From contig CAWEHK010000050.1 in the NCBI GenBank assembly GCA_963808625.1, forward strand, positions 96,001 through 160,000: a stretch of 64,000 nt of DNA, written 5' to 3'. The DNA is from an uncultured delta proteobacterium. Lineage in GTDB: Bacteria > Desulfobacterota > Syntrophobacteria > Syntrophobacterales > Syntrophobacteraceae. The position numbers were made by a program, and so were the translations under genes. The notes under the pieces were generated by a model. That model did not search any database, was not told where the DNA came from, and saw nothing but the letters and a program-made list of their open reading frames with translations. Positions 139 to 62,753 of the stretch are shown here, one piece after another (within the stretch, counting starts at the first letter, position 1; the number at the start of each line of letters is the position of its first letter).

Positions 139-272
139 CCGAAATTCCAAATCAGAAATCTGAAATCAAGAATCAGAAATCCAAAATCCGATATCCGAAA
201 TCAACGGTCCGGAACCCGGAACGTCAAATCCGAAATCCGATATCCGATATCCGAAATCGAGAATCCGAAATC
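139..272. repeat. Degenerate heptamer tandem array, unit about AAATCCG/ATATCCG/AAATCAG
   Basis: Read directly, e.g. aaatccgaaatccgatatccgatatccgaaatc; ends about 15 nt before the livM ATG at 287. Confidence 0.85.
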
Positions 273-286
273 AAACGGCGGTGCGG

Positions 287-1288
287 ATGACACGAGAAAA
301 GCTTCAGTCCCTTTCGTTGCTTCTGGTAGGAGTGGTGATCTTCGGCTTGCCCCTGGTGCTCCGAAGCCCCACTTACCTCCATATCCTGGTGCTCCTCTTT
401 CTGTACGCCTACCTGACCACCAGTTGGAACCTGGTCGGTGGTTTTGCCGGCGTGCTCCCCCTCGGGCATTCAGCTTTTGTGGGGATCGGGGCCTATACCT
501 CTACCATTCTTTCCCTCCAGTACGGCATCAGTCCCTGGATTGGGATGCTGATCGGCGGGTGTCTGGCGGTCATTGTGGGGGTGCTCATCGGCCTGCCGAC
601 CTTCAAGATGCGCGGCGCCTACTTCGCCCTGGCCACCATCGCCTTTGGCGAGGGCATCCGCGTCATGGTGGAAAACATCGAATACCTTGGGCCGTTCAAG
701 CTCAACGGTCCGCGGGGTCTCCAGATACCGCCGTTGAACACCGGCTTTACCAACTTCATGTTTAACACTAAAGAGCCTTACTACTACATCATTGTGGTCA
801 TGCTCATCGCCGTGCTGGCCCTGACCTATTTTATCTCGCGTTCGAAGCTGGGCTATTACCTCAGCGCCGGCGGGGAAGAACCCGAAGCGGCCATGGCCCT
901 GGGAGTCAATGTGGCGCGATGCAAGCTGATCGCCATGGCTATGAGCTCCTTTCTGACCGCTCTGGCCGGAACCTTTTGGGCACAGTTCACCCTCTTTATC
1001 CACCCGAAAAGCGTCATGTCCCTGGATATTTCCTTTGAAATCGCCTTCATCGCTCTCATCGGAGGCCGCGGCTCCATTGCCGGACCGGTCCTGGGGGCTA
1101 TCATTTTGCGTCCGGTCAGCGATTTTTGCCGCATCTACTTTGGTGACAAGCTGCCTGGCTTGCACTTGATCATCTTCGGGGTCATCCTGATTCTGGTGAT
1201 GATTTACCAGCCACGCGGCCTCCAGGAACCGCTCACCAAGCTGTACAACCGGTTCCTGGACCGCTTTGCATCCGCGCCCGCGTCGTAA
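287..1288 (+). CDS. livM: Branched-chain amino acid ABC transporter permease (LivM-like)
   Basis: Hydrophobic protein with SWNLVGGFAG..LGHSAFVGIGAY, RGAYFALATIAF, A.ALGVN and IGGRGSIAGP motifs; ATG at 287 (GTG alternative at 281). Confidence 0.9.
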   Translation: MTREKLQSLSLLLVGVVIFGLPLVLRSPTYLHILVLLFLYAYLTTSWNLVGGFAGVLPLGHSAFVGIGAYTSTILSLQYGISPWIGMLIGGCLAVIVGVLIGLPTFKMRGAYFALATIAFGEGIRVMVENIEYLGPFKLNGPRGLQIPPLNTGFTNFMFNTKEPYYYIIVVMLIAVLALTYFISRSKLGYYLSAGGEEPEAAMALGVNVARCKLIAMAMSSFLTALAGTFWAQFTLFIHPKSVMSLDISFEIAFIALIGGRGSIAGPVLGAIILRPVSDFCRIYFGDKLPGLHLIIFGVILILVMIYQPRGLQEPLTKLYNRFLDRFASAPAS

Positions 1289-1291
1289 AAA

Positions 1292-1399
1292 GGTAGGCAG
1301 TAGGGAGTAGGCAGTAGGGAGTAAGGAGTAAGCAGTAGGCAGTAGGGAGTAGGCAGTTAGAAAGTAGGGAGTAAGGAGTAGGGGAGTGAGGAGTAAGGC
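1292..1399. repeat. Heptamer tandem array, unit AGTAGGC/AGTAGGG/AGTAAGG
   Basis: Fills the livM-livG spacer; its end contains GAGGAG (1388-1393), the likely livG Shine-Dalgarno. Confidence 0.9.
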
Positions 1400-2125
1400 A
1401 TGACGATTCTCGACGTGAAAGACCTGGTAAAAGACTTCGGCGGGTTGCGGGCGGTAGATACCTTAAATCTCAGCATCAACGAGGGGCAGATCCTGGGACT
1501 CATCGGCCCCAATGGCGCCGGCAAGTCCACGGTCTTTAACTGCATCGCCGGAGTCTACCCCGCTACGGAGGGTGAGATCTATTTCGATGGCAAAAAGGTC
1601 AACAATGTCAAGCCCTGGAACCTCTGCAAACAGGGGCTTGCGCGGACCTTTCAGATCGTCAAGCCCTTTGTCTCCAAGACGGTGCTCTACAACGTGATGG
1701 TCGGCAGCTACGCCACGACCGACCAGCGCTCGCTTGCCGAAAAGAAGGCCATCGAGGTGCTCACGTCGCTCAACCTCGACGACAAGAAGCACGTCAAAGC
1801 GGGCAACCTGACCATCGCCGACCGCAAGCGCCTCGAAATTGCGCGGGCCCTGGCCACGGAACCGAAGCTCCTGCTGCTCGACGAGGTCATGGCGGGCCTC
1901 AGACCCACGGAAGTCGATGAAATGGTAAAGATCATCAAAGGCCTGCGGGACAGCGGCATGACGATCTTCATCATCGAACACATTATGCGCGCCATCATGG
2001 CCTTGTCCGACTGGATTGTGGTCATCCACTTCGGCCGAAAGATCTCGGAAGGGACGCCGAAGGAGGTTGCTTCGGACGAGAAAGTGATCAAAGCTTACCT
2101 GGGAGATGACTATGGCGTTTCTTGA
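1400..2125 (+). CDS. livG: Branched-chain amino acid ABC transporter ATP-binding protein (LivG-like)
   Basis: FGGLRAVD, Walker A GPNGAGKS, LARTFQ, LLLLDE, IEH, C-terminal V.KAYLG. Confidence 0.92.
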   Translation: MTILDVKDLVKDFGGLRAVDTLNLSINEGQILGLIGPNGAGKSTVFNCIAGVYPATEGEIYFDGKKVNNVKPWNLCKQGLARTFQIVKPFVSKTVLYNVMVGSYATTDQRSLAEKKAIEVLTSLNLDDKKHVKAGNLTIADRKRLEIARALATEPKLLLLDEVMAGLRPTEVDEMVKIIKGLRDSGMTIFIIEHIMRAIMALSDWIVVIHFGRKISEGTPKEVASDEKVIKAYLGDDYGVS

Positions 2126-2822
2126 GGTTAAAAATATCGATGTCTTCTACGGCGATGTTCAGGTCATCTTCGATCTCTCGCTGCACGTCAATGAAGGCGA
2201 GGTGGTAAGCATCATCGGGGGCAATGGGGCGGGCAAATCGACGCTGCTGAGAAGCATTTCCGGCTTGGTGCCACCGGCGAGAGGAGAGATCCGGTTTGAG
2301 GGGGTTCCCATTCACAAGGCCCCACCGGAAGCCATTGTCGAACGGGGCGTGGTGCACGTACCCGAAGGGCGGCGGCTGTTTACGCTCATGAGCGTCAAGG
2401 ACAACCTCATCGTTGGAGCTTACAACAAGCGCGCCGATAAGGACAAGGAAGCTACCATCGAGGAGGTCTTCGAGCTGTTCCCGCGCCTTCGCGAACGGGA
2501 ATCCCAGCTGGCCATGACGTTATCCGGCGGGGAACAACAGATGGTGGCCATCGGCCGGGGGATGATGGCCAAACCCAAGCTGCTCATGCTCGATGAGCCT
2601 TCTCTTGGCCTGGCGCCCTTGCTGATCAAGAACATCTTTGAAACGGTGCGCAAGATTGCCGATCAGGGCACCACGGTGGTGCTGGTGGAGCAGGATGTGA
2701 AGCACTCGCTGAGCATGAGCGATCGCGGTTACGTTATGGAACACGGCCGTACCGTGATGGAAGGCCCGGCCAGCGAGCTCATGGACGACCCGCACATCAA
2801 GACCGCGTATCTGGGAATGTGA
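2112..2822 (+). CDS. livF: Branched-chain amino acid ABC transporter ATP-binding protein (LivF-like)
   Basis: GGNGAGKST, VPEGRRLF, LSGGEQQM, LDEPSLGLAP, VEQ, AYLG; alternative start at 2106. Confidence 0.92.
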   Translation: MAFLEVKNIDVFYGDVQVIFDLSLHVNEGEVVSIIGGNGAGKSTLLRSISGLVPPARGEIRFEGVPIHKAPPEAIVERGVVHVPEGRRLFTLMSVKDNLIVGAYNKRADKDKEATIEEVFELFPRLRERESQLAMTLSGGEQQMVAIGRGMMAKPKLLMLDEPSLGLAPLLIKNIFETVRKIADQGTTVVLVEQDVKHSLSMSDRGYVMEHGRTVMEGPASELMDDPHIKTAYLGM

Positions 2823-2829
2823 AATGACG

Positions 2830-2937
2830 GTTGGCTCTTGGCTCTTGGCTCTTGGCTCTTAGCTCTTGGCGGTTGGCTCTTGGCATTTAGCTCTTGGCGC
2901 TTGGCTCTTGGTATTTAGCTTTCTTGGTTCTTAGCTT
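2830..2937. repeat. Heptamer tandem array, unit TTGGCTC/TTAGCTC
   Basis: ttggctcttggctcttggctcttggctcttagctc begins about 8 nt after the livF stop. Confidence 0.9.
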
Positions 2938-2995
2938 GATGACATAGTGAACATGAAAACTTCAGATGATGAACGTTCATTCACAACCATTCTCC

Positions 2996-3115
2996 AGCCA
3001 CTAGTCACCAGCCACTGTTCACTGATCACTGACCACTGTTCACTAGCCACTGACCACTGACCACTAGCCACTAGCCACTCATCACTCGTCACTCGTCACT
3101 CATCACTAACCACTG
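2996..3115. repeat. Heptamer tandem array, unit CCACTAG/CCACTGA/TCACTGA/TCACTCG
   Basis: ccactgaccactgaccactagccactagccactc...; ends just before the AGGAG RBS of aor. Confidence 0.9.
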
Positions 3116-3131
3116 CTTTTAGGAGTACGCC

Positions 3132-4901
3132 ATGCATGGCTTCTACGGACGTATCCTTCTGGTAAACCTGACTGACCGGACCTTTCAGATTGAGCCGGTT
3201 GCCGATGAGGTGCTGGCTGCCGGTCTTGGCGGCAAAGGGCTGGCGACGCGCTTGCTGCTGGAAAAGAATCCCACGGGCGTGGACCCCTTTGCGCCGGAGA
3301 ACCATCTGATCTTTGCCACCGGTCCCCTCTGCCAGAGCCGCATCTGGGGAGGCAGCCGCTACGGAGTTTACACCAAATCCCCGCAGACGCGTCTCTACTC
3401 GGAATCCTACTCCGGCGGCAAAGTCCCCGAAGCGGTCGATGCCGCAGGTTTCGATGCCGTGCTCTTTTACGGAAAGGCCGCGCGACCCACGGTGGTTTCC
3501 GTCTATCCCGACGGCGCGCAGTTCTTTGACGCCGGAGATCTCTGGGGCGCCGATACCTTCGTGACGGAAGCCGAGGTCAAGAAGCGCTTCGCCATTCAAA
3601 AGGAAGGCTATCGCAAGCCGGGAGCGGTGGTCATTGGCCCGGCGGGCGAAAAGTTGCTGCGATTTGCCGTCATTGAAAACGACAAATGGCGTTCCGCCGG
3701 TCGCACGGGCGTCGGCGCGGTGATGGGTTCGAAGCTGCTCAAGGCGGTGGTGTTCCAGGGAGACGCCCGGCGCAGCTTCTATGACCCCGATGGCGTAGCC
3801 GAATATGCCAAAGCCTTCTCCAAGGCCAACGCCGAACACCCCGGAGTCAAGGCCTACAAGGCTCTCGGCACCACCATGATGGTCGCCATCATGAACAAGG
3901 CCCAGGCTTTCCCGACACGCTACTGGGCGGAGGGGACCTTCGAGCATTGGGAAAAGATCAGCGGTCAGACCATGCACCAGGAACACGACGTCAAGCCCAA
4001 TGCCTGCGCCAAGTGCCTCATGGCCTGCGGCCGCCTGACGACGATCAAGAAAGGCCGCCACACCGGACTGGTCATCGAAGGACCCGAGTACGAAACCATC
4101 TATGCCTTCGGCGGCCTCTGCATGATCGAGGAAATCGAGGAAATCGCCTACCTGAACGACATCTGCGACCGCGTCGGCATGGACACGATCACTGCGGGTA
4201 ATCTTTGTGCGTTCACCATCGAGGCCGCACGGCGCGGCAAGGTGGACTACGATATCGACTACAACCAGCCCGAAAAGGTCGCCAGGCTGGTGCAGGAAAT
4301 CGGCAATCGGGAAGGGATCGGCGATGTGCTCGCGGAAGGCATCATCCACGCCGCCAAAACCTGGGGTCTCGAAGACCTCGCCATCCACGTCAAGGGCATG
4401 GAACCGGCCGGCTACGACCCGCGCACTCTCAAGGGCATGGGCTTATCCTACGCCACCTCAGACCGCGGCGCCTGCCACCTCCGCACCACCTTCTACAAGC
4501 CGGAGCTGTCCGGCATGATCGCCCCCGCGACCATCGAAGGCAAGGCCGAGATGCTGACCGATTTCGAAGACCGCCTGACGATCTTCGACACCCTGATCCT
4601 GTGCCGCTTCTACCGCGACCTCTACACCTGGGAGGAACTGGAAAAGGTCATCAACATGGTCACCGGCCTCCCCGCCTCAAAAGAAGAGCTCCGCAAGAAA
4701 GCCGCCGCCATCTCCACCATGACCCGCCAGTTCAACCTGCGCGAAGGCCTCAAGCCCGACCAGGACCGCCTGCCCAAACGACTCCACCGCGAAGCCCTCC
4801 CCACCGGCCAGTCCTTGAGCGAAGAAGAAATGGAACAAATGCTCAAGGAATATTTTCACCTGCGCGGCTGGGACGAGCAGGGCATTCCGCCCGGAACCTG
4901 A
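3132..4901 (+). CDS. aor: Aldehyde:ferredoxin oxidoreductase family protein (tungstopterin, 4Fe-4S)
   Basis: GRTGVGAVMGSKLLKAV, CAKCLMACG (CxxCxxxC), GPEYET, GMDTI, GYDPR, DRGACHL, C-terminal RGWDEQGIP; AGGAG RBS. Confidence 0.92.
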   Translation: MHGFYGRILLVNLTDRTFQIEPVADEVLAAGLGGKGLATRLLLEKNPTGVDPFAPENHLIFATGPLCQSRIWGGSRYGVYTKSPQTRLYSESYSGGKVPEAVDAAGFDAVLFYGKAARPTVVSVYPDGAQFFDAGDLWGADTFVTEAEVKKRFAIQKEGYRKPGAVVIGPAGEKLLRFAVIENDKWRSAGRTGVGAVMGSKLLKAVVFQGDARRSFYDPDGVAEYAKAFSKANAEHPGVKAYKALGTTMMVAIMNKAQAFPTRYWAEGTFEHWEKISGQTMHQEHDVKPNACAKCLMACGRLTTIKKGRHTGLVIEGPEYETIYAFGGLCMIEEIEEIAYLNDICDRVGMDTITAGNLCAFTIEAARRGKVDYDIDYNQPEKVARLVQEIGNREGIGDVLAEGIIHAAKTWGLEDLAIHVKGMEPAGYDPRTLKGMGLSYATSDRGACHLRTTFYKPELSGMIAPATIEGKAEMLTDFEDRLTIFDTLILCRFYRDLYTWEELEKVINMVTGLPASKEELRKKAAAISTMTRQFNLREGLKPDQDRLPKRLHREALPTGQSLSEEEMEQMLKEYFHLRGWDEQGIPPGT

Positions 4902-5200
4902 CGCGATAACCGGCAACTCAGGGGTCGCCTCCACCGCAGCCCGGGCGGTGAACGGAGCGAAGAACCTCTTCCAAAACGACGCAGCAGGGCAAGTTGTCCT
5001 TATCTTGATCCCAGCCAATAGAGCGACATCTTTGCCAGTTTTCATGAAAATTTGTCTCCTTTATGTTATGGAGGGCTTGCAACCGTGGGCCAACTTCTAT
5101 AGTAATGGGCGGTTCACGAACGCCTCGAGGTTGTCAGGCGTTCCGGTACCATTTCGCTCCGGCTTCAACATTGGTTCAAGGTTCAGCAAGGAGGCATTAG

Positions 5201-6494
5201 ATGGGTGGTTCGTTCATGCCGGTCCGGGCATCCCGAGAGGACCTGGATGCCATTCAGCTCGAGGGGCTGAAATGGACCGTTGCGCATGCCTACAATAACT
5301 CACCATTTTACCGGGAAAGGCTCAAGCAGGCCGGGGTCACGCCCGAGCAGGTCCGCACCCTGGATGATCTGCGCCGGCTTCCCTGTTTGACCGCCCAGGA
5401 CCTGCAGGACGAGTATCCGTTTCCCCTGCGGTCCGTGCCTTTTGAGAAAATTCGCCGCATTCATGCCTCCTCGGGGACTACGGGAAGACGGAAAGTCCTT
5501 TGCTACAGCCGGAAAGATCTCGACGACTGGGCGGACATGTTTGCCCGGTGCTATGAAATGGCCGGGCTTTCCGTGGAAGACCGGGTGCAGATTGCCGTCG
5601 GCTACGGGCTCTGGACCGCGGGAGTCGGTTTTCAACTGGGCTGCGAGCGGTTCGGCGCCATGTCCATCCCGGTTGGGCCCGCCAACACCGAAATCCACTG
5701 CCAGATGCTCGTGGATATGCAGAGCACGGTGTTCTGCTCGACGGCATCCATGGCGCTGCTCATCGCCGAAGAGATCGAGCGGCGGGGCATTCGAAAGCAG
5801 GTGGCCTTGAAAAAGATCATCTTCGGTGCGGAACGCCACAGCCGGAGGATGCGGCAGCGAGTCCAGGAGATCACGGGAGCCGAGGAACTTTTTGATATCC
5901 CCGGCCTTACCGAGCTCTACGGGCCGGGTGTGGGTCTTGAATGCAGCGCCCATCAGGGAATTCACTACTGGGCTGATTACTATATTCTGGAAATCCTCGA
6001 TCCCGAGACGCTCGAGCCGATGCCTCCCGGCGAGACGGGAGAGATGGTGGTGACCACCTTGCGCAAGGAGGCGGCGCCGCTCATTCGCTACCGCACGCGG
6101 GACCTCACCCGCCTCATCCCCGAGCCCTGTCCCTGCGGCAACCCGCTTCCCCGGCACGACCATTTGCTGGGCCGCTCGGACGACATGTTCATCTTCCGCG
6201 CGGTCAATATCTACCCCGGCCAGATCGACCATGTCCTCTCTCAAATCCCGTATGTCGGAAGTGAGTACCAGGTGCATCTGTATCATCGGGAAGACGGGCG
6301 TGACGTGATGCTGATTAAGGTCGAACGGATCGATGGCGGGTCCCCCGACCTCCGATCGCAAGCTTGCCGAACTCATCATCAGCGAGCTCCGCAGCCAGAT
6401 TCTCGTTCGCCCCGAGATTGAACTGGTCGACTATGGCACCCTCCCCCGCACCGAGCGCAAGAGCAAGCGGGTGTTCGACCAGCGGGGAGATTAG
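5201..6494 (+). CDS. paaK: Phenylacetate-CoA ligase family protein, one frameshift near 6352
   Basis: HASSGTTG, GLTELYGPG, PLIRYRTRD, GRSDDM; the expected C-terminus (..ELVDYGTLPRTERKSKRVFDQRGD*) is in another frame ending at TAG 6492-6494; GGAGG RBS. Confidence 0.88.
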
Positions 6495-6524
6495 TGGCGA
6501 GTGATTAGTGGCTAGTGGCTAGTG
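6491..6524. repeat. Short heptamer array, unit TAGTGGC
   Basis: ttagtggcgagtgattagtggctagtggctagtg; overlaps the paaK stop; reverse complement of the 2996-3115 family. Confidence 0.75.
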
Positions 6525-6752
6525 CACGCGGTGCATAATGTCGTGAAGCCGGTGGCCAAAAATACTTCCTACCCTAAGAGCAGGGAACAATGCACGGGTG
6601 TTGCTACAGCTTCACCGTGCCCGCCTGAACTGGCTAGCCGATTTCGGCCCAGGTGAATAGTGATCAGGTGGTATGTACTGGTAGGTTGTCAGAGTTATGA
6701 GGAGTGGGCTTGATGGTGCGAGACTGCCGTTAACCAGAAAGGAGGGTCAGCT

Positions 6753-7943
6753 ATGAGATCAAGAAATTGAGGGGGTCTGCGTTTCTTGCCTGGTTGTTGC
6801 GCTTGCGGCGGTTTTGCATCATGGGTAGCTGGCGCGGCGCGGGCCGAAGAACCCATCAAGATTGGGGCTTTTTTTGCGCTCTCCGGGCCGGCGGCTTCGA
6901 TCGGCACGCCGACGAAGCTGGTGGCGCAGATGGTGGTGGATAAGATCAACAAGGAAGGGGGCATCAACAAACGCCCCCTGGAAATGGCCATGGGAGACAC
7001 GGAAAGTGACCCCACCAAGGCGCTTATGGAAGCCAAACGGCTGGTGGAAAGGGATAAGGCCGTCGCCCTCATCGGCCCCACCCGCACCGATGAAGGGCTG
7101 GCGGCAAAGCCTTACATCGAAGACACGGCGCATCTTCCCATCATCATGACGATCGGCGGCGATCCCGTGATTTCAGGCGGCAAATTCGGCCCCTTCAAGT
7201 GGACCTTCAAGACTCCCCAGCGCACCTCGGTCGCTGCGAAAAAATTATATGACTTTCTCCGGTCGCAGAAACAGACCAAAGTCGCCCTGCTTACCGCCAC
7301 CGACGGCTTCGGCAAGGATGGCCTGAACTGGCTGGAACAGCTGGCCGCGGAATTTGGCATGGAGATTGTCATCAAGGAAGCCTTCGCCGTTACGGACACC
7401 GACATGACGCCCCAGCTCCTCAAGATCCGGGAGAGCGGAGCGCAGGCGCTCATTTGCTGGACCATCGGCCCGGCCGGTGCCCGCGTAGCCAAGAACGTCA
7501 AGCAGTTGGGGCTGAAAATGCCGCTCTACCAATGCCATGGACAGCCCGATCCCAAGTACATCGAACTCGCCGGCGATGCTGCCGAGGGAAGCATCATGCC
7601 CTCCACGAAGCTGATGGTGGTGGATCAGCTCCCTGACAGCGACCCGCAGAAGGCAGTAATCAAAGACTTTCTGACGCTCTACAAAGACGTCTATCACTAT
7701 GATCAGCAATATCCGATCAATACCCACTCCGGGTACGCCTGGGATGCGATCTACCTCCTGGCAAATGCCATGCGCCAGGTCGGCACGGAACCGGAAGCCC
7801 TCCGCAGTGCGATCGAACAGACCAAGGGCTACGTCGGCATCAGCGGCGTCTACAACTTGACCCCGGAAGATCACAATGGACTGGGGACAGATTCCCTGGT
7901 CATGGTGAAAGTCGAAAATGGAAAGTGGGTTTTACTTGAGTAG
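6753..7943 (+). CDS. ABC transporter substrate-binding protein (LivJ/LivK family); signal-peptide region frameshifted
   Basis: ARA-EEPIKIGAFFALSGPAASIG, INKEGGINKRPLE, GISGVYNLTPEDHNG; AAGGAGG RBS then ATG 6753, out of frame with the ORF body at 6786. Confidence 0.85.
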
Positions 7944-8017
7944 ATTTCGGATGTCGGATTGCGGATTTCGGATTGCGGATTTCGGATTGCGGATTTCGGA
8001 TTGCGGATGGCGGATTT
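7943..8017. repeat. Heptamer/14-mer tandem array (TTTCGGA TTGCGGA)n
   Basis: ttcggattgcggat repeated three times immediately after the binding-protein stop; reverse complement of the 139-272 family. Confidence 0.9.
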
Positions 8018-8020
8018 GAA

Positions 8021-9076
8021 GTGCAGGACAGTACCTCGATTTCGGATGGCGGATTGATAAGGCAGAACATCAGGAAAATATTCATTCGCTCGACGAATTG
8101 GATTGGTGATGCGGTCATGACCACCCCGGCCATGAGTAGAGTGAGAGCGGCATTTCCCCATGCGGAAATTGTTGTCGCCGCCAACCCGACGGTGGCGGAA
8201 CTGCTGGGTCATCACCCCGACTGTGATCGCCTTCTGATCTACGATAAAAAGGGGAAGCACCATGGACTGGGAGGACTCCTCCGCTTCTGCGGTGAAGTTC
8301 GAAAAGAACGCTTCGACCTGGCCATTCTTTTTCAGAACGCCATCGAAGCGGCCATCATGACCACGCTTGCCGGGATTCCCCGCCGCGCCGGGTACACCAC
8401 CGACTGCCGGGGCCTTCTGCTGACCCACAGGGTGCGAGGCTGGCGACGGGCGCGCCGGTTCCATCACACCGAGTACTATCTCAACATGCTGGCCGGGTTG
8501 GGAATTGAGGGCGGCAATGGCCGACTCCACCTGCGCTGTACCGAAGAAGAACTGGCGTGGGCCAGGGAGCGGCTTCCCGGCGACAGGTGGGTGGCGATCA
8601 ATCCCGGAGCGACCTATGGATCTGCCAAGCGCTGGTTCCCCGAGCGTTTTGCGGCGGTGGCGGATACCATTGCCGAGGAGTTTTCCACGCACATCCTTAT
8701 CATCGGGGGACCGAACGAAGGATTGATTGCCGAGGAAGTTGCTGCGAACATGCGCACGCAGCCTCTTAACCTTGCGGGAAAGACTTCGGTGCGGGAGCTG
8801 ATGGCCCTGCTTTCTCAATGCCGCCTGCTGGTGACCAATGACTCGGGACCGATGCACGTCGCGGCAGCCTTCGGCGTGCCGATTGTCGCCATCTTCGGGT
8901 CCACGGACCACACCACCACCTCTCCTTTGAGCTCATCCTGCCGGATTGTCCGGAAGCCAACCGCTTGCGCTCCCTGTTTGAAAACCACGTGCCCTACGGA
9001 CCATCGCTGCATGACCGCGATTTCCGCAGAAGATGTTGTGGAGGCCGCCCGCCTGCTACTAGGAGGTCAATCATGA
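8021..9076 (+). CDS. waaF: Lipopolysaccharide heptosyltransferase II (GT9); start uncertain
   Basis: NWIGDAVMTTPA, INPGATYGSAKRW, NLAGKTS, TNDSGPMHVAAA, C.PC....CP.DHRCM. Confidence 0.9.
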   Translation: MQDSTSISDGGLIRQNIRKIFIRSTNWIGDAVMTTPAMSRVRAAFPHAEIVVAANPTVAELLGHHPDCDRLLIYDKKGKHHGLGGLLRFCGEVRKERFDLAILFQNAIEAAIMTTLAGIPRRAGYTTDCRGLLLTHRVRGWRRARRFHHTEYYLNMLAGLGIEGGNGRLHLRCTEEELAWARERLPGDRWVAINPGATYGSAKRWFPERFAAVADTIAEEFSTHILIIGGPNEGLIAEEVAANMRTQPLNLAGKTSVRELMALLSQCRLLVTNDSGPMHVAAAFGVPIVAIFGSTDHTTTSPLSSSCRIVRKPTACAPCLKTTCPTDHRCMTAISAEDVVEAARLLLGGQS

Positions 9077-9715: not shown

Positions 9716-9739
9716 GAGCTGAACAACTGTGTTCTTAGC

Positions 9740-9928: not shown

Positions 9929-9950
9929 CTAAGAGCTAAGAGCTAGGAGT
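9929..9950. repeat. Short heptamer array, unit TAAGAGC
   Basis: ctaagagctaagagctaggagt just before msbA; reverse complement of the 2830-2937 family. Confidence 0.6.
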
Positions 9951-9967
9951 CAGAGGTGAATCAGCAA

Positions 9968-11700: not shown

Positions 11701-11731
11701 GTCGGTGGCTAGTGGCTAGTGGTTAGTGGTC
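11701..11731. repeat. Short heptamer array, unit AGTGGCT
   Basis: gtcggtggctagtggctagtggttagtggtc directly after the msbA stop. Confidence 0.75.
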
Positions 11732-50531: not shown

Positions 50532-50661
50532 GTCCAAAAATAAAAGGCCTTCTTTTACCACGAAGAACACGAAGGACACGAAGTGATTTCTTCGTGTCCT
50601 TCGTGTTCTTCGTGGTTCAAAAAAGGGTTGAAATGGGTGCAAGTTGTTTTTGGACAGGTTC
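50532..50661. repeat. MITE-like element enclosing a perfect 27-bp inverted repeat built from 9-mers
   Basis: accacgaagaacacgaaggacacgaag (50557-50583), 6-nt loop, exact reverse complement (50590-50616); outer gtccaaaaa / tttttggac. Confidence 0.8.
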
Positions 50662-52282: not shown

Positions 52283-52340
52283 AGTCATAACTGAGTTATT
52301 CGTTAACTTTATTGACTTAATTAACACTAATTGTTTCCAA

Positions 52341-52481: not shown

Positions 52482-53936
52482 GTGCTGGGATTTGCCTCAA
52501 AAAGTGATTTTCGGACCGTAATTGAGCAATCGTTGGCTTCAGGAGACCTGGAAACCGCTCTGCGAAATGTCGAGCAACTGGTTGAGCGGGTATTTTGCGA
52601 GCCGCTGAACACGGCCGTGATCTTTGGCGATCGCTTCCTCGATGAGGTGTGCCAGCGTATAGGCCGGATCCGTCGGGCGACCGTGTTGAGCGCCGGGAGT
52701 TTGCCGAAGTCCCCAGTCCCAACCCGGGAACGGCCCGGCCGGGTTGTATACATCGCGAGCATGTTACAGGCGTCGGGAGGCCACACGGCCGTTCTGGCAG
52801 ATCTTGCCAGACTCTCCGGCAGGGCGGGGACGGTTTTGGTGACGGGGATCGGCGGCCCCACCAACCGTCGCGCGATCCAGCATCGTTTCTCCGGCATTCC
52901 GGACTTGCAGTTTGAATTCGCTCCGAAAGGCGGCCGCCTGAAGAAGCTCGACTGGCTGCAGCGCCGGCTCATCGAACTCAACCCTTCGGTGGTGTGGCTC
53001 TTAAATCACCACCAGGACAGCGTAGCGGTGGCTGCGGTGCAACCTGATCAGGGGTACACACTGAACTTTCTCCATCATGGCGACCATAATTTGTGCCTGG
53101 GTGTATTCCTTGACTACGGCGAACATTTCGACCCCCATCCCATGGGGTTCCGCAACTGCCGTCATGTCCTCTCGATTCCAACGAACAACTACCTCCCGCT
53201 TGCTGTCAAGGATCTGGGATACTCCCCGAAACCGAACGCGGCCTGTCCAAACGGGCCGCTTGTGACCTGCACCGCGGCCCGGCGCAACAAGATTGAAAAG
53301 CCCTACTGGTTGAGCTACGCCGACGTCGTTCCGGAAATTTTGCGGCAGACCAAGGGCAGGCACATTCACATCGGAAAGTTGAGTCTCGGTTTCCGTTTGC
53401 GAATCTGGTGCAATTTGAAAAGAGCGGGTATCGATCCGGCCGCATTTGTCTACATTCCCTACGTCAACAGCGTTTGGCAGGCACTCCAATATCACGCGGT
53501 GGATATCTACATCGCGTCCTTTCCTTACGGTGGTGCCCGCACCCTGGTGGAAGTCCTGGGGGCAGGTGTGCCGATCGCCATCCACAGCCACAGCAGCAAA
53601 CCGTTTTTGAGTACCCTGGAGATGGCACCCGAGGGGGCCTTGATCTGGCGGGAACTCGGGGAACTGATTGAACTCCTGGGCCGGCAGTCACGCGAAGAGC
53701 TTGCCGTGCTGAGCGCCAAAGCACGCCGGCACTATGAACGATTTCACTCGGAATCGGCGTTGAAGAGCGCGCTGGAAGGGAGCTCGTCGGAACTGCCTGT
53801 TTCTCCGGGTGGAGCAGCATACCGGATTGATCGCTTGCGGCAAGCTCTTGACGTAGCCGACCAGGTTACGTTCTCCGGAGTTGTCACACGGCGAGCCCTG
53901 CGGTGGGCACGACGGCTCAAGACCATGCTGGGCTGA
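52482..53936 (+). CDS. Putative GT-B fold glycosyltransferase; start uncertain
   Basis: GGHT, HHGDH.LCLG, DIYIASFPYGGARTLVEVLGAGVPI; polysaccharide context. Confidence 0.6.
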   Translation: MLGFASKSDFRTVIEQSLASGDLETALRNVEQLVERVFCEPLNTAVIFGDRFLDEVCQRIGRIRRATVLSAGSLPKSPVPTRERPGRVVYIASMLQASGGHTAVLADLARLSGRAGTVLVTGIGGPTNRRAIQHRFSGIPDLQFEFAPKGGRLKKLDWLQRRLIELNPSVVWLLNHHQDSVAVAAVQPDQGYTLNFLHHGDHNLCLGVFLDYGEHFDPHPMGFRNCRHVLSIPTNNYLPLAVKDLGYSPKPNAACPNGPLVTCTAARRNKIEKPYWLSYADVVPEILRQTKGRHIHIGKLSLGFRLRIWCNLKRAGIDPAAFVYIPYVNSVWQALQYHAVDIYIASFPYGGARTLVEVLGAGVPIAIHSHSSKPFLSTLEMAPEGALIWRELGELIELLGRQSREELAVLSAKARRHYERFHSESALKSALEGSSSELPVSPGGAAYRIDRLRQALDVADQVTFSGVVTRRALRWARRLKTMLG

Positions 53937-54058
53937 CTCCCAGGTGTCGGCTAACCAGGCGACAGATATTTCACTTTTATCCTCTAAAGATACCGTATCA
54001 GGCGAGCACCTTCAGACGATTGCTGAGCCGGCCACCTCACAGCACACCGCATGCTCCA

Positions 54059-54772
54059 TCATAGTTGCCGTACAAATCGAGCTGGAACACCCGCAACAAG
54101 AGTCATTCGTTCAACATTTTTCGTGACGACGGACCCGGCCGCCACCGTTGCGCCCTGTCCGATAACCACACCGGGCAGGAGTGTAGCGCCTATGCCGATG
54201 ACCACGTCATCCTCGATGGTCGGGCCAACACAATGATCCGAAAATCCTTCTCTGACAAGGTTGTCGTTGGCCGTTCCAACTAAAACACTGATGAAGACGC
54301 GTCTGCCGATTTTGGCATTGCCCGTGATGTGGGTATTGTCCATAACCTTGGTCCCGTCACCAATCGTCGTGTTATAGTTGATTGTTACGTAACGGCTGAT
54401 GATGCACTTCGAGCCGACCTTGCATTTTTCCCGGATAGAGGCCCCGTCACCAAGCAGGGTATTGCTGCCTATTTCTACGTCATAGAAAACAACTGCGTGG
54501 GGGCCAATGGAACAGCCGTCTCCAATGTGGATATGTTTCTCGAAAACCGGCTGTCTTGCAAGAGCGCCCGCGCCTTTGGGCTCCTTCCCAATAAGCGCAC
54601 CGTGAAACACTTCGACGCCGACGCCGAGAGTGACGCCATCGGCAATAACAACGTGAGAATGAATCACCGTTTCGTCACCGATAGTCACACGGCCAATCAC
54701 GCAGAACGGCCCTATCGAGATATTAGCTCCGAGCTTCGCTTCAGCGGCAACAATGGCCGTAGGATGAATCAT
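54059..54772 (-). CDS. Hexapeptide-repeat N-acyltransferase (FdtC/QdtC/WbpD-like)
   Basis: MIHPTAIV, long hexapeptide repeats, IGATLLPGV.IG, AGSVVTK.V, GVPAR. Confidence 0.82.
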   Translation of the reverse strand: MIHPTAIVAAEAKLGANISIGPFCVIGRVTIGDETVIHSHVVIADGVTLGVGVEVFHGALIGKEPKGAGALARQPVFEKHIHIGDGCSIGPHAVVFYDVEIGSNTLLGDGASIREKCKVGSKCIISRYVTINYNTTIGDGTKVMDNTHITGNAKIGRRVFISVLVGTANDNLVREGFSDHCVGPTIEDDVVIGIGATLLPGVVIGQGATVAAGSVVTKNVERMTLVAGVPARFVRQL

Positions 54773-54837
54773 TCCAGAGAACCTCGCAAGGAGTTAATAA
54801 ATTAGCAAAACTAAGGGTAGAGATCCAGTATAAAACT

Positions 54838-56317
54838 CTACTGTTCAATAGCCCGAATCACATCGTCTGCGTCAACCCGAAACTCAGTATGGAGAGTAGG
54901 GGCAGCGGGATCAAGGTAAGGCCCGAAGACATAGTTCACCGTGTTGCCCAGCGCTGCCGCCATGTTCGGCCAGTACCAAAACTTGTGTGTCGGATGGGTG
55001 GAAAGGCAGATGACGACTCGAGCCGATTTCGAGCAAAACACGAGGTTTGCCAGCCCTGCACCGGTTGCACCCACGATCACCTCAGCGTTGGCGAACAGGT
55101 GGTATTGCTCGGCAAAAGAAAGGCTTTCGGGCTGGATGATCGAAAATCCACGACTCACAAGCTTAGCCTCGATTTGAGGCTCGTTTATCATGGTGCGTGT
55201 GAGGGAACCCCGCCGCAAGAAAACCCTGGTGGGCAAAGCGGGCAAGGGCTTTTCGAGAACGCTGCCCAGATGTTTGCCCATTAGGGTGAGGGCATAGGGA
55301 CTGAAAATACCGTGTGAATGGCCGGACTTAGCAGACCCGCGACAGTCGAATGGAATATAGCCCGTCGGCGAAGTGATGAGCAGGCGCTTCACGCGGGCAG
55401 CCTCCTCCGGGCCCAACCTGATGATGTCAGCCTTATCGCCCGCCACGGCCCGAAGTGATTCCTCCAGGTTGGCATGCAATCCGGCATCCACAATCAAGGG
55501 GATACGGCCTTCGGGGTGAAGTGCGACAGAACAGATTGATCCGGGGCAACACCTCGGTCAGCCAATGGGCATAATTTCGGGAACAGGAATCCGTGAAGCT
55601 GGCAGCAACTGCGAGATGGTGTCGGATCTCAGGCTTCAGATATTGTTTGACAACGTTTTTCCGGGGATCGATGTGGATCTTTTCGTGCAACTCCTCGGAC
55701 GTGAAATCGTGCGAGAATCGGTACAGGTCATGGTGAACCGTCCGGCCATTCGAGCGCACCAGGTTGCTGCAGCCGTACACTTCTGCATCAAACAGTTCCG
55801 CAACGACAATCGACGGGAACTCGTAGGATTCGTGGTTGGGCAGCAGGACGTACCTCGATTCGGCAGGGTAGACTCCCGGGGCGGGCGTCGCCACTCGCTC
55901 GGGCGCACTCAGGGTTTCGATCTTGCCGGATTTTGAAGCCGCCGCCGTCAATGAGAGCAACGGCACGCTCGGTTCGCGCCAGCGCCGCCATTTGACCTTA
56001 AGCGCTTGCACGGCTGGTCGCACGATCTTCCAGCGGGTAAACCAAACTGCCGTCCAGACGGCTACTGCGGCCGGTCGGAGGATCTTCCAGCGCATAAACC
56101 AAAATACCGTCCAGACGGCTACTGTGGCCGGTCGGAGGATCTTCCAGCGCATAAACCAAAATACCGTCCAGACGGCTACTGTGGCCGGTCGGAGGATCTT
56201 CCACCGGGTAAACCATAGTGCTTTCCAGATCGCGTCTTTCGGTATGCGAATCACCCGGTAGTGGCGCATTCGGGATCGATAAAACTCGGCCAGAGTGGGA
56301 AATCTTTGTTCGAACAT
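54838..56317 (-). CDS. GT61/DUF563-family glycosyltransferase (copy 2), frameshift near 55510
   Basis: Collinear with copy 1 from MFEQRFP.LAEFYRSR to FRVD.D.V.RA.EQ*. Confidence 0.8.
56021..56215. repeat. In-frame 57-bp tandem repeat, about 3.5 copies, in GT61 copy 2
   Basis: cgtccagacg recurs at 56051, 56108 and 56165; encodes WFMRWKILRPATVAVWTVF. Confidence 0.93.
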
Positions 56318-56492
56318 GGGCGTCAGCCTCCTACGGCCGAACCGGATGCCGGATAGTTCGCAAGATCAACATCGGTGGGGCCATTTTTTCACAAAACTTG
56401 ACGATTGGTAAAGGGGAACAGCAGGCGAGGTCAGCAATGGCTCTTTTCATGCCCACCGAATCGAGGCAAAACAACTGAAAAACCCCATGCGG

Positions 56493-57456
56493 TTACAATC
56501 TCTTGAGGAGCGCCGCCGCAAACAGTCCGATGTTCCCTAACGCGGTCTGACGGTAGATTTGTGAGCGTTTGATGCCGATAAGTCGAGGAAGCAGCGGCTG
56601 ATTCCTGGCGTTGGAGAACTCATCCAGGATGCGCTTATTTGCGGGCAGCAGGCGCCGGCGGATCCGCCGCAAAGCCTGGATATTATGATCATTCCATCCT
56701 CTGAATTGATTGTCGAGCAGCATGCCTGCGCGCATCAAGCGGCCCGACCAACCGAGATTCGATCCCAGCAGGTTGCGGCCATGTTGGCGATAGCGCATGG
56801 TGGGGAGGGGATCGTAGAACACCTTTCCACCGCAACCTGTTACAACGATATAGGTCCACCAATCATGGGTCACGACATCGACATCGGCACCGCTTTCGCC
56901 GCAGGAGATTGCGGGCCGCGTTGTTGAAGACCATCGTATTACCGCCGGCGATGTTCTGGACCAGGGCGTTGGCAAAACAGGGAGGCCGGGCATGAAGCTC
57001 TGACAAGCCCATTTCCTTTCCGGCCGCATCCACCAGCATAGTTCGCGAGCAATACAGGGCAGGTTCTGAAGGTGGCATGCGCTCCAGCCAACTGACCGCT
57101 CGCGACAACTTGTCCGGTTCCCAGATGTCGTCCTGGTCGGAGTACGCATAGTAATCAGCCTGGATGCCGGATTTGCAGGCCAGGGAAAGGAAATTTGTGG
57201 CGAGGCCCCTGGCCGGGCCGCGCAGGACCGTAAGACGCTCGCCCCCCCACTTCGCCCGATACGCTTCGAGAATGGCAAGGGTATTATCTTTCGAGCCGTC
57301 ATCCGAGGCCCACAGTTCCCAGTCCGGATGCGTCTGTGCGGCTAACGAGTCAAGCTGTTCGGCAAGAAAACGCTCACCATTAAAGGTGCCCATCAACACC
57401 GCGACTTTGGCCGTACCACAGCTCTGTGCCAAGCCCGCGCGTGCAGCGACTCGCAT
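56493..57456 (-). CDS. GT2 glycosyltransferase (rhamnosyltransferase-like), frameshift near 56900; start uncertain
   Basis: VLMGTFNGERFL.EQLDS, SDDGSKD, SDQDDIW, QN.AGGNTM, HDWW, YRQH..N..G. Confidence 0.82.
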
Positions 57457-57680
57457 CAAGGCATCGTCCGTACCCTGGCCCGCGTGCCGGGTAAACCCGT
57501 CAACCATCCCGTCCAACTCCCGAGACCCACTGCGAATGCTGCGGAAAAAATTGGTGACCATGCTGAAAACGACCTGCTACTCCCGAAGATTTCAAGTTAA
57601 CAGGGCCACTACACGAGGCCACTCAAAAAGTCAAGAGGAAGCGATGCCTATTTTACCGATTCGCTGGATTGTTGAGGCTT

Positions 57681-58872
57681 TTAGTACCATCCTCGAAGGG
57701 ATTGGTTAGACAGCTGCGCAATCAGGCGTAACTCATCCTTTTCTAAATAAGGATGCATAGGCAGGCTGAAGATCCTCTGAGCACAGTCTTCGCTGACCGG
57801 GAAATCCCCTGTCTGGTAGCCAAGGCTGCGAAAGGCCGTCTGCCGATGCAGGGGCTTTGGATAGTAGATGGCCGTCGGTATCCCGGCCGCCTTCAACCGG
57901 TTCTGGAGCATCGTGCGGTGCGCCTCGTCCCGGGCCAGCAGGGAATATTGGGCCCATGCCGACCGATATCCGTCCGGTACGTGGGGTAGGGTGAGAGACG
58001 AACCGAGGAGCAATTCCGTGTAGCACCGGGCAACCTGCTGCCGCAGTGTGATTTCTTCCGGAAAGACCTCGAACTTGGCAAGTAGAATCGCCGCCTGCAA
58101 GGTATCCAGGCGGCCATTGATGCCGATGCGCACATTCTCGTACTTGTCGTTTCCCTGCCCATGCTGAGCAAGGGACCGCATGAGGTTGGCGAGGGTGCCG
58201 TCATCGGTAAAGCACATCCCGCCATCACCATAACCGCCGAGCGGTTTTGCCGGGAAAAACGAGGTGCAGCCAATCTCGGCAAGTGCTCCGGCGCTTCCTC
58301 CTCCCCGCATTTCGCCGCCAAAGGATTGGGCTGCATCTTCAATGACAAAAAGCCCATGCTTTCGGGCTACGGGATTGATTTGTTCGTAGTTGGCAGGCAG
58401 GCCAAAAAGGTCTACGGCAATGACACCCTTTGCCTTCAGGCGGGGACTTCCTCTGCGACCGGGAATCTCCCCCCGGCAGAGGATGCAGCGTGGGATTATT
58501 GGCCTGAAGTGCGGTAATCGCCTGCTCCAGGGCCTCCGCGCTGAGGTTATAGGTCCGCGGGTCGATGTCCGCGAAGACCGGGGTGGCGCCAAGGAGACTG
58601 ATTACTTCCGCGGTGGCAACGAAGGTGAAAGGAGTGGTGAAAATGGCATCACCGGGACCCACTCCATACGCCATCAAAGCCAGGAGCAAAGCATCCGTCC
58701 CCGAACTGCAGGCGACGGCATGGGTCACCCCGACATAAGCAGCAAGGCGCTCCTCGAGCTCTCTTACCTCAGGTCCCAGGATGTATTGGCCGTGGGCGAG
58801 GACGGTCCTGATCCCTGCCTCAATCCGGTCGCGGATGCGTTGCTGTTGGCGGCCCAAGTCGATAAATTGCAT
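57681..58872 (-). CDS. DegT/DnrJ aminotransferase (WbpE-like), frameshift near a homopolymer at about 58470
   Basis: MQFIDL, YILGPEV, SSGTDAL, VDLFGLPA, EDAAQSFG, TSFFPAKPLGGYGDGG, NGRLDTLQAA. Confidence 0.85.
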
Positions 58873-58919
58873 CGGTTCAGCGCTTCTCCGGTTTTGAGAA
58901 TTCCTGCCAGATCGATTTG

Positions 58920-59003
58920 CTTCGTGTCCTTCGTGTCCTTCGTGTCCTTCGTGGTGTGAAATAAGTTCAACATGAAAGCAAGTTATTTTTGTACAGACCC
59001 TTA
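58920..59003. repeat. Partial copy of the 9-mer element at 50532-50661
   Basis: cttcgtgtc x3 plus cttcgtggt, then gcaagttatttttgtacagaccctta resembling gcaagttgtttttggacaggttcta. Confidence 0.75.
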
Positions 59004-59038
59004 GTACTACAACGAGGTTTCCGCAGGGGGCCTTAATC

Positions 59039-59106
59039 TGTGGGGCAGGCTTTCCAGCCTGCCTTTTGGCCGCTTCGGCATGGCAGGCTGGAAAGCCTGC
59101 CCCACA
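59039..59106. repeat. REP doublet, perfect 25-bp inverted repeat
   Basis: tgtggggcaggctttccagcctgcc (59039-59063) / ggcaggctggaaagcctgccccaca (59082-59106), just downstream of ettA. Confidence 0.88.
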
Positions 59107-59140
59107 CGGATTGGAGTTTCACCAAAGTACCGTTGTAGTA

Positions 59141-60827
<1,687 letters not shown>

Positions 60828-60853
60828 GAATTCTGAAACCCTCCCTCGACGGC

Positions 60854-60888
60854 TGGTCAGTGGTCAATGATCAGTGGTCAGTGATCAG
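60854..60888. repeat. Heptamer array, unit TGGTCAG/TGATCAG (CTGACCA on the ettA coding strand)
   Basis: Five units just upstream of the ettA RBS; same family as 2996-3115 when read on the minus strand. Confidence 0.8.
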
Positions 60889-61032
60889 ACCTTCGAAAGT
60901 AGTTCCTTATCACCTCACCTATCACCCTGTCAAAGAAGTTGGAAGTGGGGGGGTGAGGGTGTAATCAGAAGTGGGAGTTCGCCGTGGCCTCATGTGACCA
61001 TTACCTGATTGCGAATGAGCCTGCATGGTTTC

Positions 61033-61261
61033 GGTGGGTGCAAAAAGACGCGCCCACCCTACGGAGCCTGTCTGAAAATGACATGCAACTGGTCAGTCCA
61101 TCTGTAGGAGCGGCATCCTGCCGCGATTTAGTCCGGTCGCGGCTGGAAGCCGACTCCTACAAGGTTTGATCGCCACCGCCCCATAACCTTCGACCAATTT
61201 TCAGACAGCCTCCTACGCCGTGGCCCAATTGTAGGGTGGGCACAGCTTTACCGTGCCCACC
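61033..61261. mobile_element. Nested non-autonomous element: 151-bp MITE with internal REP doublet, inserted between two GTAG-type REPs
   Basis: TIRs ggagcctgtctgaaaat (61063-61079) / attttcagacagcctcc (61197-61213), 16/17; TAC on both sides; inner REP pair 61103-61161; outer REPs 61033-61062 and 61231-61261. Confidence 0.75.
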
Positions 61262-61395
61262 AGGACAGAAGACCCTGCCTTTCAGTAGTTTCCAACTCCC
61301 ACTTCTGTTCACACCCGGGGGGTGAGAGGAGATTGCCGAGAGGCGTTGCATTTTGTACAATATTCCTTGAACACCTGACGCAAAGGGGAATTGAA

Positions 61396-61911
61396 ATGAA
61401 GAAGACCATATGTATTGCCATGGCCATCATGGTGCTGCTCCTCGTGAGCCCCTTCGCCGGGGACGCGACCGGGCCATACCCCGGGCGAGGACCGGGAGGT
61501 GGCCCGGGATGGGGTCCGCGTGCGGGTCCCGGATGGGGCGGTCACGGGGGAGGACCACGTGTCGGGTCGGGATGGGGAGGCTATTGGGGAGGACCGCGCG
61601 TCGGACCGGGATGGGGCCCGAGGTGGGGAGGCTACTGGGGGGGGCCGCGCGTTTACTTTGGTGCTCCTTTTTGGAGCGGTCTTTACCTGGGCGCTCCCTT
61701 CTGGGGCGGCTTCTATCCGTACTATGCAACGCCGCCCGTGATCGTCCAGGAAGCGCCTCCCGTGTATGTGCAACCGGCGCCGCAACCCGAGCAGGCTTAT
61801 TACTGGTATTACTGCCAGAACCCTCCGGGTTATTACCCGTATGTCAAAGAGTGTCCGCAGGGCTGGACGAAGGTTGCTCCTTCTCCACCGCCCTCGGACC
61901 GACAGGAGTGA
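61396..61911 (+). CDS. Secreted Gly/Pro/Trp/Tyr-rich hypothetical protein
   Basis: Signal peptide MKKTICIA.., GGPRVG.GWG repeats, C-terminal WYYC..P.GYYPYV..CP.GW. Confidence 0.75.
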   Translation: MKKTICIAMAIMVLLLVSPFAGDATGPYPGRGPGGGPGWGPRAGPGWGGHGGGPRVGSGWGGYWGGPRVGPGWGPRWGGYWGGPRVYFGAPFWSGLYLGAPFWGGFYPYYATPPVIVQEAPPVYVQPAPQPEQAYYWYYCQNPPGYYPYVKECPQGWTKVAPSPPPSDRQE

Positions 61912-61918
61912 TGGTGCG

Positions 61919-62422
61919 ATGAATTACCGACAATGCTTTTTCGTCTCTCTGATGTTGCTGGTGTTGAGCGGGTGCGCGACGCTCCCCACCGGTCCAAGCG
62001 TGATGGTGCTGCCCGCTCCGGGGAAGCCCTTCGACGTGTTTCGGTCCGAGGATGCCACATGCAGGATGTATGCGAGCCAGCAGATAGGGATGTCACCACA
62101 GGAGACGGTCAACCGGAACACGGTCACCGATGCTGCTCTGGGGACGGTCCTCGGCGCAGGTCTTGGTGCAGCCATCGGGGCAATCTCGGGCAATGCCGGT
62201 ACGGGTGCGGCTGTCGGTGCGGGCAGCGGACTCCTTGCCGGCACCCTTGCCGGCTCCAGCAGTGGTCAGGTCTACGGATGGGAGGCGCAGCACCGCTACG
62301 ACATCTCCTATCAGCAGTGCATGTACGCCCAGGGAAACCAGATTCCGGGTATGGTCGAAAGGCGTTCGAGAACTTATGCGGCACCCCCTCCCCCGCCTCC
62401 ACCGCCGTCCTCGGCATGGTAA
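61919..62422 (+). CDS. Glycine-zipper lipoprotein
   Basis: Lipobox LSGC, GAGLGAAIGA..G.GAAVGAGSG, Y.QCMYA.GNQ.P, poly-Pro tail. Confidence 0.8.
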   Translation: MNYRQCFFVSLMLLVLSGCATLPTGPSVMVLPAPGKPFDVFRSEDATCRMYASQQIGMSPQETVNRNTVTDAALGTVLGAGLGAAIGAISGNAGTGAAVGAGSGLLAGTLAGSSSGQVYGWEAQHRYDISYQQCMYAQGNQIPGMVERRSRTYAAPPPPPPPPSSAW

Positions 62423-62568
62423 CCCGCCATGCGACCAGTTGCCGCAACGGAGGGCGGGTTTTCCAACCCGCCCTTGAAATTCGCGGCAGGCCAACCATGC
62501 CCGCGATGGGTTGTGTCTGCGGACCTTGGAACCTGACGAGGACTGTCCATATGGTCCTGACTGCATAG

Positions 62569-62753
62569 CGAATATCGAATATCGAACAAGGAACCGCAGA
62601 ACATCGAAGGATGGGGGAATCTTGTGCGTGGTGAGCGGCTGTTTAAATGAAAACTGGCAATGCTTACCCGTTTTTGGCAGGCATTAACGAAACCGAGCTA
62701 AATCAGGAGAGCACTTCATCATTCGACATTCCTTGTTCGTTATTCGATACTCG
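62569..62753. repeat. Paired inverted heptamer-based arms enclosing 135 nt
   Basis: cgaatatcgaatatcgaacaaggaa (62569-62593) vs ttccttgttcgttattcgatactcg (62729-62753), 23/25 complementary. Confidence 0.82.

Follow-up and report, generated by a model that had tools for sequence, protein, structure and literature searches.

The 64,000 nt window analysed here (contig C50, positions 96001–160000, of the 4.8 Mb, 85% complete assembly of genome G000) contains tandem arrays of heptamers between its genes, and these arrays are tied unit by unit to cassettes of the same genome, in which a small four-helix-bundle gene (PF05635) is enclosed by two inverted heptamer arms. The units of the six resident cassettes were found in 159 of the 278 other arrays (57%). 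When six cassettes were instead drawn 2000 times from 15 loci of congeners (79–85% median protein identity to this genome), they covered 8.7% of the arrays on average and 19.8% at most, and six drawn from 15 loci of other genera covered 0.7% on average and 1.8% at most; all 30 foreign cassettes pooled reached 22%, foreign loci without period-7 arms having been excluded from the draws. Whole-genome unit searches gave the same picture, as the genome holding the cassette had the most matches for 10 out of 10 arm units; within the genus, each of five units peaked in the genome with its cassette, and a five-by-five unit test outside the genus gave one off-diagonal match. Two units were confined to their own cassette and two occurred at the cassette and one further locus, which argues against a cassette that merely takes over a common local unit, and fits an order in which the cassette comes first and spread follows. 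Two genomes in which no PF05635 gene passes the profile cut-off had no period-7 or -8 arrays in the 400 kb sampled from them; six genomes with such a gene had 1 to 22 per sample (100–400 kb each). It is this match between resident cassettes and orphan arrays that is new here.

The PF05635 profile search of the genome gave eight matches, of which the six over the cut-off are the genes counted. All six are enclosed by inverted heptamer arms, which the first-pass annotation had described as frequent around genes of this kind, in the order G-rich arm, small gene, C-rich arm, and each cassette has its own unit, with unit variants mirrored in both arms. Four tested proteins passed TIGR02436, and one protein matches PDB 2gsc (E 2.5e-15), a homopentamer according to PMC4990558. 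The two weak matches were an Avd gene next to a reverse transcriptase, which lacks arms, and a fragment with a short C-rich tail. This Avd-like gene and the adjacent reverse transcriptase gene are located at C43:93237-95574 (L037, L040) with a candidate template open reading frame (ORF), and likely form a diversity-generating retroelement. All six cassettes are located between protein genes, and the window loci contain no PF05635 gene. The enclosed (cargo) gene is co-oriented with the gene upstream in 6/6 cassettes of this genome (by eye), while a crude ORF test on 52 loci scored 34 as the same orientation, 8 as opposite and 10 as not scorable. In relatives, nearly all PF05635 genes with inspected flanks have period-7 or -8 arms (18 congener and 10 other loci, with arm counts computed for 24 of the relatives' loci).

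Two of these relatives show the cassette inside other genes. In G002, the L071 cassette lies within a 23S rRNA gene according to an Rfam run on that locus, and L066 and L071 are near-identical 23S rRNA copies, both of which contain a PF05635 ORF and its short heptamer arms, a true intervening sequence within the same genus. In G006, a full PF05635 cassette with heptamer arms (L057:1471-1851) is located within the ORF of a PglX methyltransferase (2-2998, minus strand), of which the ortholog in this genome (C17:60115-61491) has no insert. The PglX frame stays open across the cassette, with the cargo gene in another frame, and this open frame speaks against removal of the cassette from the mRNA by splicing. 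L034 and L063 are sister genes at different sites; they are 74% identical over 497 nt and have arms of the same family. Two of the six resident cassettes are in one array-dense region (C29:179000-215000), and one of these two has a frameshift close to its end and an arm with a higher-order period of 35 bases. A parallel period-9 system exists, in which nonamer arms surround GxxExxY genes with the same geometry in 33/40 cases; this genome has six GxxExxY matches over the cut-off, most with nonamer arms and with the purine-rich arm first.

Arrays were detected by an autocorrelation scan, with Tandem Repeats Finder (TRF) run alongside, and genes were called with our own hexamer-model caller, for which start calls are less reliable than stops. 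The scan gave 403 period-7 arrays genome-wide, versus 6, 16 and 127 arrays of period 6, 8 and 9, respectively, and a single block-shuffled genome gave one period-7 array; TRF reported 386 loci with a smallest period of 7, and 5 and 69 for periods 6 and 8. The excess of period 7 over 6 and 8 therefore holds for the whole genome. The arrays are mostly intergenic, with 31 of the 403 inside called genes. Merging left 341 loci, from which we dropped those within called genes (24), at contig ends (2) or with a weak G/C skew (30), and the remaining 285 were used to score polarity. Viewed on the plus strand, G-rich arrays abut the left-hand gene and C-rich arrays the right-hand gene; this holds for each of the four gene arrangements, and is weakest between divergent genes. 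This is the stop-side/start-side rule which had been proposed from the window, and it was obeyed by 124/131 arrays within 10 nt of a gene, by 170/183 within 30 nt and by 228/285 at any distance (p ~5e-36); several of the 13 exceptions within 30 nt occupy tiny gaps or adjoin a cargo gene. Stop-side arrays start within 15 nt of the stop codon in 133/176 cases, and 51/176 contain the stop codon and so begin in the last codons, while start-side arrays are more distant (38/109 within 30 nt). Gaps holding both polarities always had the G-rich array before the C-rich array (29/29), and short same-strand gaps were filled by arrays of either polarity (9 G-rich and 7 C-rich, one of the latter at a cargo gene). 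Arrays alter the last codons and untranslated ends of many genes in this lineage, at approximately 10% of the sampled gene ends here and 2% in congeners.

The stop/start rule follows from a fixed G-first hairpin geometry, with the G-rich strand always running away from the neighbouring host gene. Since such a hairpin reads identically on both strands, polarity gives no proof of the entry in sense direction that the first-pass annotation had proposed, although the co-orientation of the cargo genes does point that way. The proposal of five unrelated sequence families was not upheld either, as one network of single substitutions joins 46 of the 49 units (shuffled units: mean 14, maximum 31, 300 trials). 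The commonest units (ATGGTTG, ATGAGTG, CTGAGTG and TCAGTGG) lack a GGG run, and higher-order periods of 14, 21 and 35 bases occur in the arrays.

The ten heptamer loci originally picked out in the window are all present at their given places, and are listed here with strand, unit and neighbouring gene, together with the tail of a further arm at the window's start and two period-9 features:

1–5 (+): tail of the G-rich left arm of a gene-less hairpin, unit GGATTTC; the arm is at C50:95972-96005 (window -28 to 5) and starts 6 nt past the livH stop.
138–272 (+): right arm of this gene-less livH-livM hairpin, C/A-rich, units AAATCCG/AAATCAG/ATATCCG; ends 14 nt before the livM ATG at 287.
1293–1395 (+): G-rich orphan array, GGGAGTA/GGCAGTA; fills the livM-livG gap from 4 nt past the stop.
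2831–2937 (+): stop-side array behind livF, GGCTCTT; the assembly holds no cassette with this unit.
2996–3117 (+): start-side array before aor, CACTAGC/CACTGAC/CACTCAT; not complementary to the livF array on its left, and its end is common to G002.
6489–6524 (+): short stop-side array, GGCTAGT/GATTAGT; overlaps the paaK stop.
7943–8056 (+): stop-side array, GGATTTC/GGATTGC; begins within the stop codon of a binding-protein gene.
9929–9953 (+): weak three-copy start-side array before msbA, CTAAGAG; TRF score 35.
11701–11730 (+): stop-side array behind msbA, GGCTAGT/GGTTAGT; also in G002, and the unit is the arm unit of cassette C37:131109.
60854–60888 (−): start-side array, CACTGAC/CACTGAT; 26 nt before the start of ettA (named by NCBIfam).
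62567–62609 (+): left arm of a gene-less hairpin, AATATCG/ACCGCAG family, of which the arms enclose PF05635 genes in G001 and G004.
62717–62755 (+): right arm of the same hairpin; precedes a split cation/proton antiporter gene.
50559–50614: gene-less inverted pair with period-9 arms.
58920–58953: orphan arm of period 9.

Thus the array at 139, suspected of being a hairpin arm, does have its left arm behind the livH stop, and the pair folds with a z-score of -3.65 (predicted stem). The livM-livG array shares its unit with the arms of cassette C29:189369, in a family also found in G002, and the array at 7943 shares its unit with the arms of cassette C39:83807; the latter array is absent in G002 and replaced by another unit in G006. 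The two arms noticed together at 62569–62753 are a pair (predicted fold, z -6.26) which belongs to a separate, A-rich-first and mostly paired family, whose 47 motif hits include about a dozen pairs with a short gap; the form of this family that bears a gene is present in G001 and G004, but was not found in this assembly. Between 12 and 58 kb of the window no period-7 array passed the scan, in agreement with the absence of clear arrays noted there originally, and the period-9 inverted pair at 50559–50614 falls within this region. Rfam gave no match anywhere in the window.

Filled, gene-less and empty states were found at matching junctions in relatives, as the first-pass annotation had expected. 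Of 12 other genomes, 8 have a plain gap of 12–63 nt at the livH-livM junction, G004 shares both arms with this genome, G037 has a different heptamer unit, and G002 and G023 have other inserts. A small extra gene, the same in both genomes, is present at this junction in G002 and G037 (L043, L049), and in G037 is located behind the heptamer array. At livF-aor, inspection by eye of ten other genomes showed 7- or 8-base arrays in six, five of them with units unlike those here, while three were empty and one had another hairpin. The arms at C51:134022-134334 are empty in this genome and have the PF05635 gene between them in G002; G001 and G004 have this gene at a junction where this genome has one arm of another unit; and the paralogous junctions C50:166250 and C13:10600 differ by the presence of the gene. 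We sampled 1.6 Mb from four congeners, which gave 493 ortholog pairs with aligned ends (these pairs are not independent). An array was present only here at 40 of these ends, only in the congener at 3, in both at 7 (2 with the same unit and 5 with a different unit) and in neither at 443. Array density is 84 per Mb here and 2.5 in G003, and together with the ortholog counts this indicates that most arrays in this genome are lineage-specific. For a comparison with miniature inverted-repeat transposable elements and insertion sequences, the arms vary in length and unit, and the congeners are too distant for a clean reading of the junctions.

Heptamer arrays with this polarity have been described before, and the rule itself is thus already published (Rehm 2015; MacGregor 2015). 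The consulted portions of Rehm et al. 2015 (PMC4692102) describe GGGAATC repeats in Xanthomonas and heptamers in Nostoc, with the G-rich strand within 50 bp after a stop codon (sense) or before a start codon (antisense), convergent inverted pairs, and long repeats at different genes in sister species. These resemble our arrays in being intergenic runs with the same stop/start rule and convergent pairs; the same portions report one unit per organism, read as a G-quadruplex motif, and draw no link to a cargo gene or cassette, whereas here there are dozens of related units, most without G-tracts, which are tied to PF05635 cassettes. TAACTGA arrays in Beggiatoaceae, cyanobacteria and Bacteroidetes run toward start codons and, in reverse, after stop codons, are mixed with related heptamers and have a patchy distribution which suggests transfer (MacGregor 2015, PMC4679880, in the sections consulted). 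They differ from the arrays here in being described in those sections as a single unit and as proposed protein-binding sites for translational control; the terms 'four helix' and 'intervening' do not occur in the text of PMC4679880. The available parts of these accounts of polarity name no source for the repeats, which the cassettes would supply.

For the cassettes, a close counterpart is the S23p intervening sequence of Coxiella, which according to the available text of Warrier et al. 2016 (PMC4990558) has a terminal stem and heptamer repeats before its ORF. Its protein family (PF05635/TIGR02436), terminal stem and heptamers are shared with the cassettes here, while the elements in the window, unlike the Coxiella intervening sequence, are located between protein genes and lack an ORF. 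A second parallel is the REPIN, a doublet built from repetitive extragenic palindromes (REPs), with its REP-associated tyrosine transposase (RAYT); the consulted part of Bertels and Rainey 2011 (PMC3116915) describes extragenic inverted doublets and singlets, of which the sequence groups match the gene that they flank. Our arrays similarly match the flanks of a cognate gene (57% versus at most 20%), but this gene encodes a non-catalytic four-helix bundle and not a Y1 tyrosine transposase, doublets are not the common unit (37/261 paired) as singlets dominate, and the arms are periodic and of variable length. The third is Avd, which binds RNA jointly with a reverse transcriptase (Handa et al., bioRxiv 10.1101/2023.10.23.563531, as far as the consulted text goes). 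The cassette proteins have a related fold, with weak matches to profiles NF033474 and PF22296, but unlike the Avd of diversity-generating retroelements the cassettes have no linked reverse transcriptase, and the true Avd of this genome has no arms. In a literature search covering few subscription journals and no supplements, we found no link between PF05635 genes and inverted heptamer arrays beyond the heptamers of the Coxiella element. We group the arrays with two known kinds of element, the intervening sequence and the REPIN-like repeat with a cognate gene. Two puzzles may be one, namely the dominance of heptamers among long simple repeats of many bacteria and the role of the widespread '23S rRNA intervening sequence protein'. 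The unit-by-unit match to hundreds of gene-less arrays points to a protein and a cognate sequence.

We somewhat favour, with a probability of roughly 55%, the explanation that the arrays are gene-less or single-armed descendants of PF05635 cassettes; host recombination or repair would have copied these to gene boundaries, and reduction would have followed. The cassette would arrive by horizontal transfer with its own unit, and copies with or without the gene would be placed at the ends of genes or close to them. Insertion into the last codons may be tolerated there, since many units contain a stop codon when read on the G-rich strand. Because of the instability of long palindromes, the palindrome may lose its loop or one arm, after which slippage could regrow the surviving arm and the unit would drift by single changes. 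As a guess, the non-catalytic pentameric protein may bind single-stranded DNA or the RNA of its own arm, as the related Avd does with RNA, and a host enzyme would do the chemistry.

Several observations weigh against descent from cassettes. A cognate partner was found inward of 37/261 arrays (and outward of none), leaving 224/261 (86%) without one within 800 nt; 220 of the 249 array-bearing gaps have one polarity only, and in the 29 mixed gaps just 12 have a unit common to both arms, the other 17 being non-identical. Protein and DNA hidden Markov model searches of 285 inward and 285 outward flanks, with 2009 control gaps, revealed no remnant of a cargo gene, the only extra match being a fragment on C6 in a control gap, and the inward flanks of orphan arrays do not repeat the inner sequence of any cassette. 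The earlier view of the window arrays as arms or scars of a hairpin cassette thus stands for arms with a recurrent cargo, and is borne out for scars at a few sites only. The large families AGTGCTG, CTGGGTG, AGTGGTC and CTCTTGG have no cassette in the 85%-complete assembly, and G006 (99% complete) and G007 have 46 and 28 matches, respectively, of units without a matching cassette. Arms are also present on both sides of a conserved gene at C50:44409, presumably Mth938-like, with no cargo; this gene was considered as a larger cargo and rejected as a conserved neighbour, and same-unit G-then-C pairs stand out only at 100–700 nt. Searches for a mobilising enzyme, target-site duplication or mobile intermediate found none, and the comparison rests on related genomes that are not independent, with two genomes as the cassette-free control. 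The signal for local spread is weak: within 20 kb of cassettes there are 8 cognate arrays versus 1.3 expected, but other units are enriched as well (27 versus 12.6), neighbouring arrays share a unit in 12/139 cases versus 11.5 by chance, and the signal is dominated by the dense C29 region, where block transfer would look alike.

The predominance of single arrays without gene remnants would also be expected if the arrays were self-propagating dispersed repeats, REP/REPIN-like or long simple repeats, in which four-helix-bundle genes settled as passengers within existing hairpins and had their arms matched by gene conversion. The families without a matching cassette here and in two congeners fit this, as do the unrelated proteins found within one unit family (L057 versus L034/L063) and the five Y1 transposase-like (PF01797) genes of this genome, which are located away from the cassettes. 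We nevertheless consider it possible but doubtful, as units confined to a cassette, or to a cassette and one locus, cannot come from a common local family, and the two cassette-free samples had no arrays. Hitchhiking on REP-like palindromes was rejected, since these are not enriched in array gaps (8/249 versus 53/2259); nonamer arms are not enriched in gaps with heptamer arrays either. Selection for regulatory sites, whether these bind the pentamer or act at transcript ends as RNase III and stability signals, would make polarity a consequence of function on the mRNA. The close spacing of stop-side arrays to the stop codon, the junctions at which several congeners also have arrays (shared in 7 of the 493 ortholog pairs), the long predicted stems of paired arms and the RNase III cut in the Coxiella element, which falls at its first heptamer (PMC4990558, in its available text), all speak for such a function. 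It is unlikely as the origin of the arrays, however, given that 40 of 47 array-bearing gene ends have no array in the congener and 5 of the 7 shared sites have a different unit, that density varies approximately 30-fold among congeners, that short same-strand gaps are filled in both polarities, and that the cargo genes themselves are in the reverse arrangement.

Non-identical arms and beginnings in the last codons would be accounted for if arms were written singly, by an Avd-like pentamer that is templated by an arm RNA, borrows a polymerase or reverse transcriptase and extends broken DNA ends at gene boundaries in a telomerase-like manner. The 5′ to 3′ direction of the G-rich strand, which leads away from the host gene whichever side the array is on, the single arrays (86%) without cargo remnants, the units tracking resident cassettes and the weak Avd-model matches of two cassette proteins are all consistent with this. 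Such writing is nonetheless very unlikely to explain the arrays: the four reverse transcriptase genes are all more than 5 kb from the nearest array, and complete cassettes require two matched arms. Decay along the arrays is directional, with a sharper edge on the gene side, but this is not significant where the gene-side flank is non-coding; and a pre-existing seed at the gene ends of congeners is not clearly above chance (33 pairs, mean match 5.5/9 versus 5.2 with permuted units, p ~0.05, and 5.3 at random ends). It is quite unlikely, too, that the pentamer joins with its own arm RNA in a particle that writes repeats, adding cognate G/T-rich heptamers to DNA ends at gene boundaries with a borrowed polymerase; in that case each resident cassette would serve as the master template for one repeat family across the genome, without a transposase and akin to telomerase. 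Replication slippage on local sequence combined with selection, with slippage put forward for heptamers by Mrazek 2007 (as cited in the consulted part of PMC4679880), is in line with the single-change drift of units and the higher-order periods. That it makes everything is extremely improbable, as had been recognised from the window: genome-specific units occur at dozens of sites and are absent from congeners, mixed gaps invariably have the G-then-C order, the units match resident cassettes, and the all-or-none distribution of units between genomes contradicts it.

Three genes next to arrays in the window are broken by frameshifts, namely paaK (5201–6494), ettA (59141–60827) and the antiporter gene (62786–64000); the true paaK stop (6492–6494) lies past such a frameshift. 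As these genes are split in congeners as well, indel errors in the assemblies are likely. REP-like palindromes are present at 59040–59105, 60940–61310 and 62460–62490 of the window, one family of which has 92 motif hits in the genome, and the polysaccharide region contains a 57-base tandem repeat of 3.6 copies with 92% matches (56012–56215).

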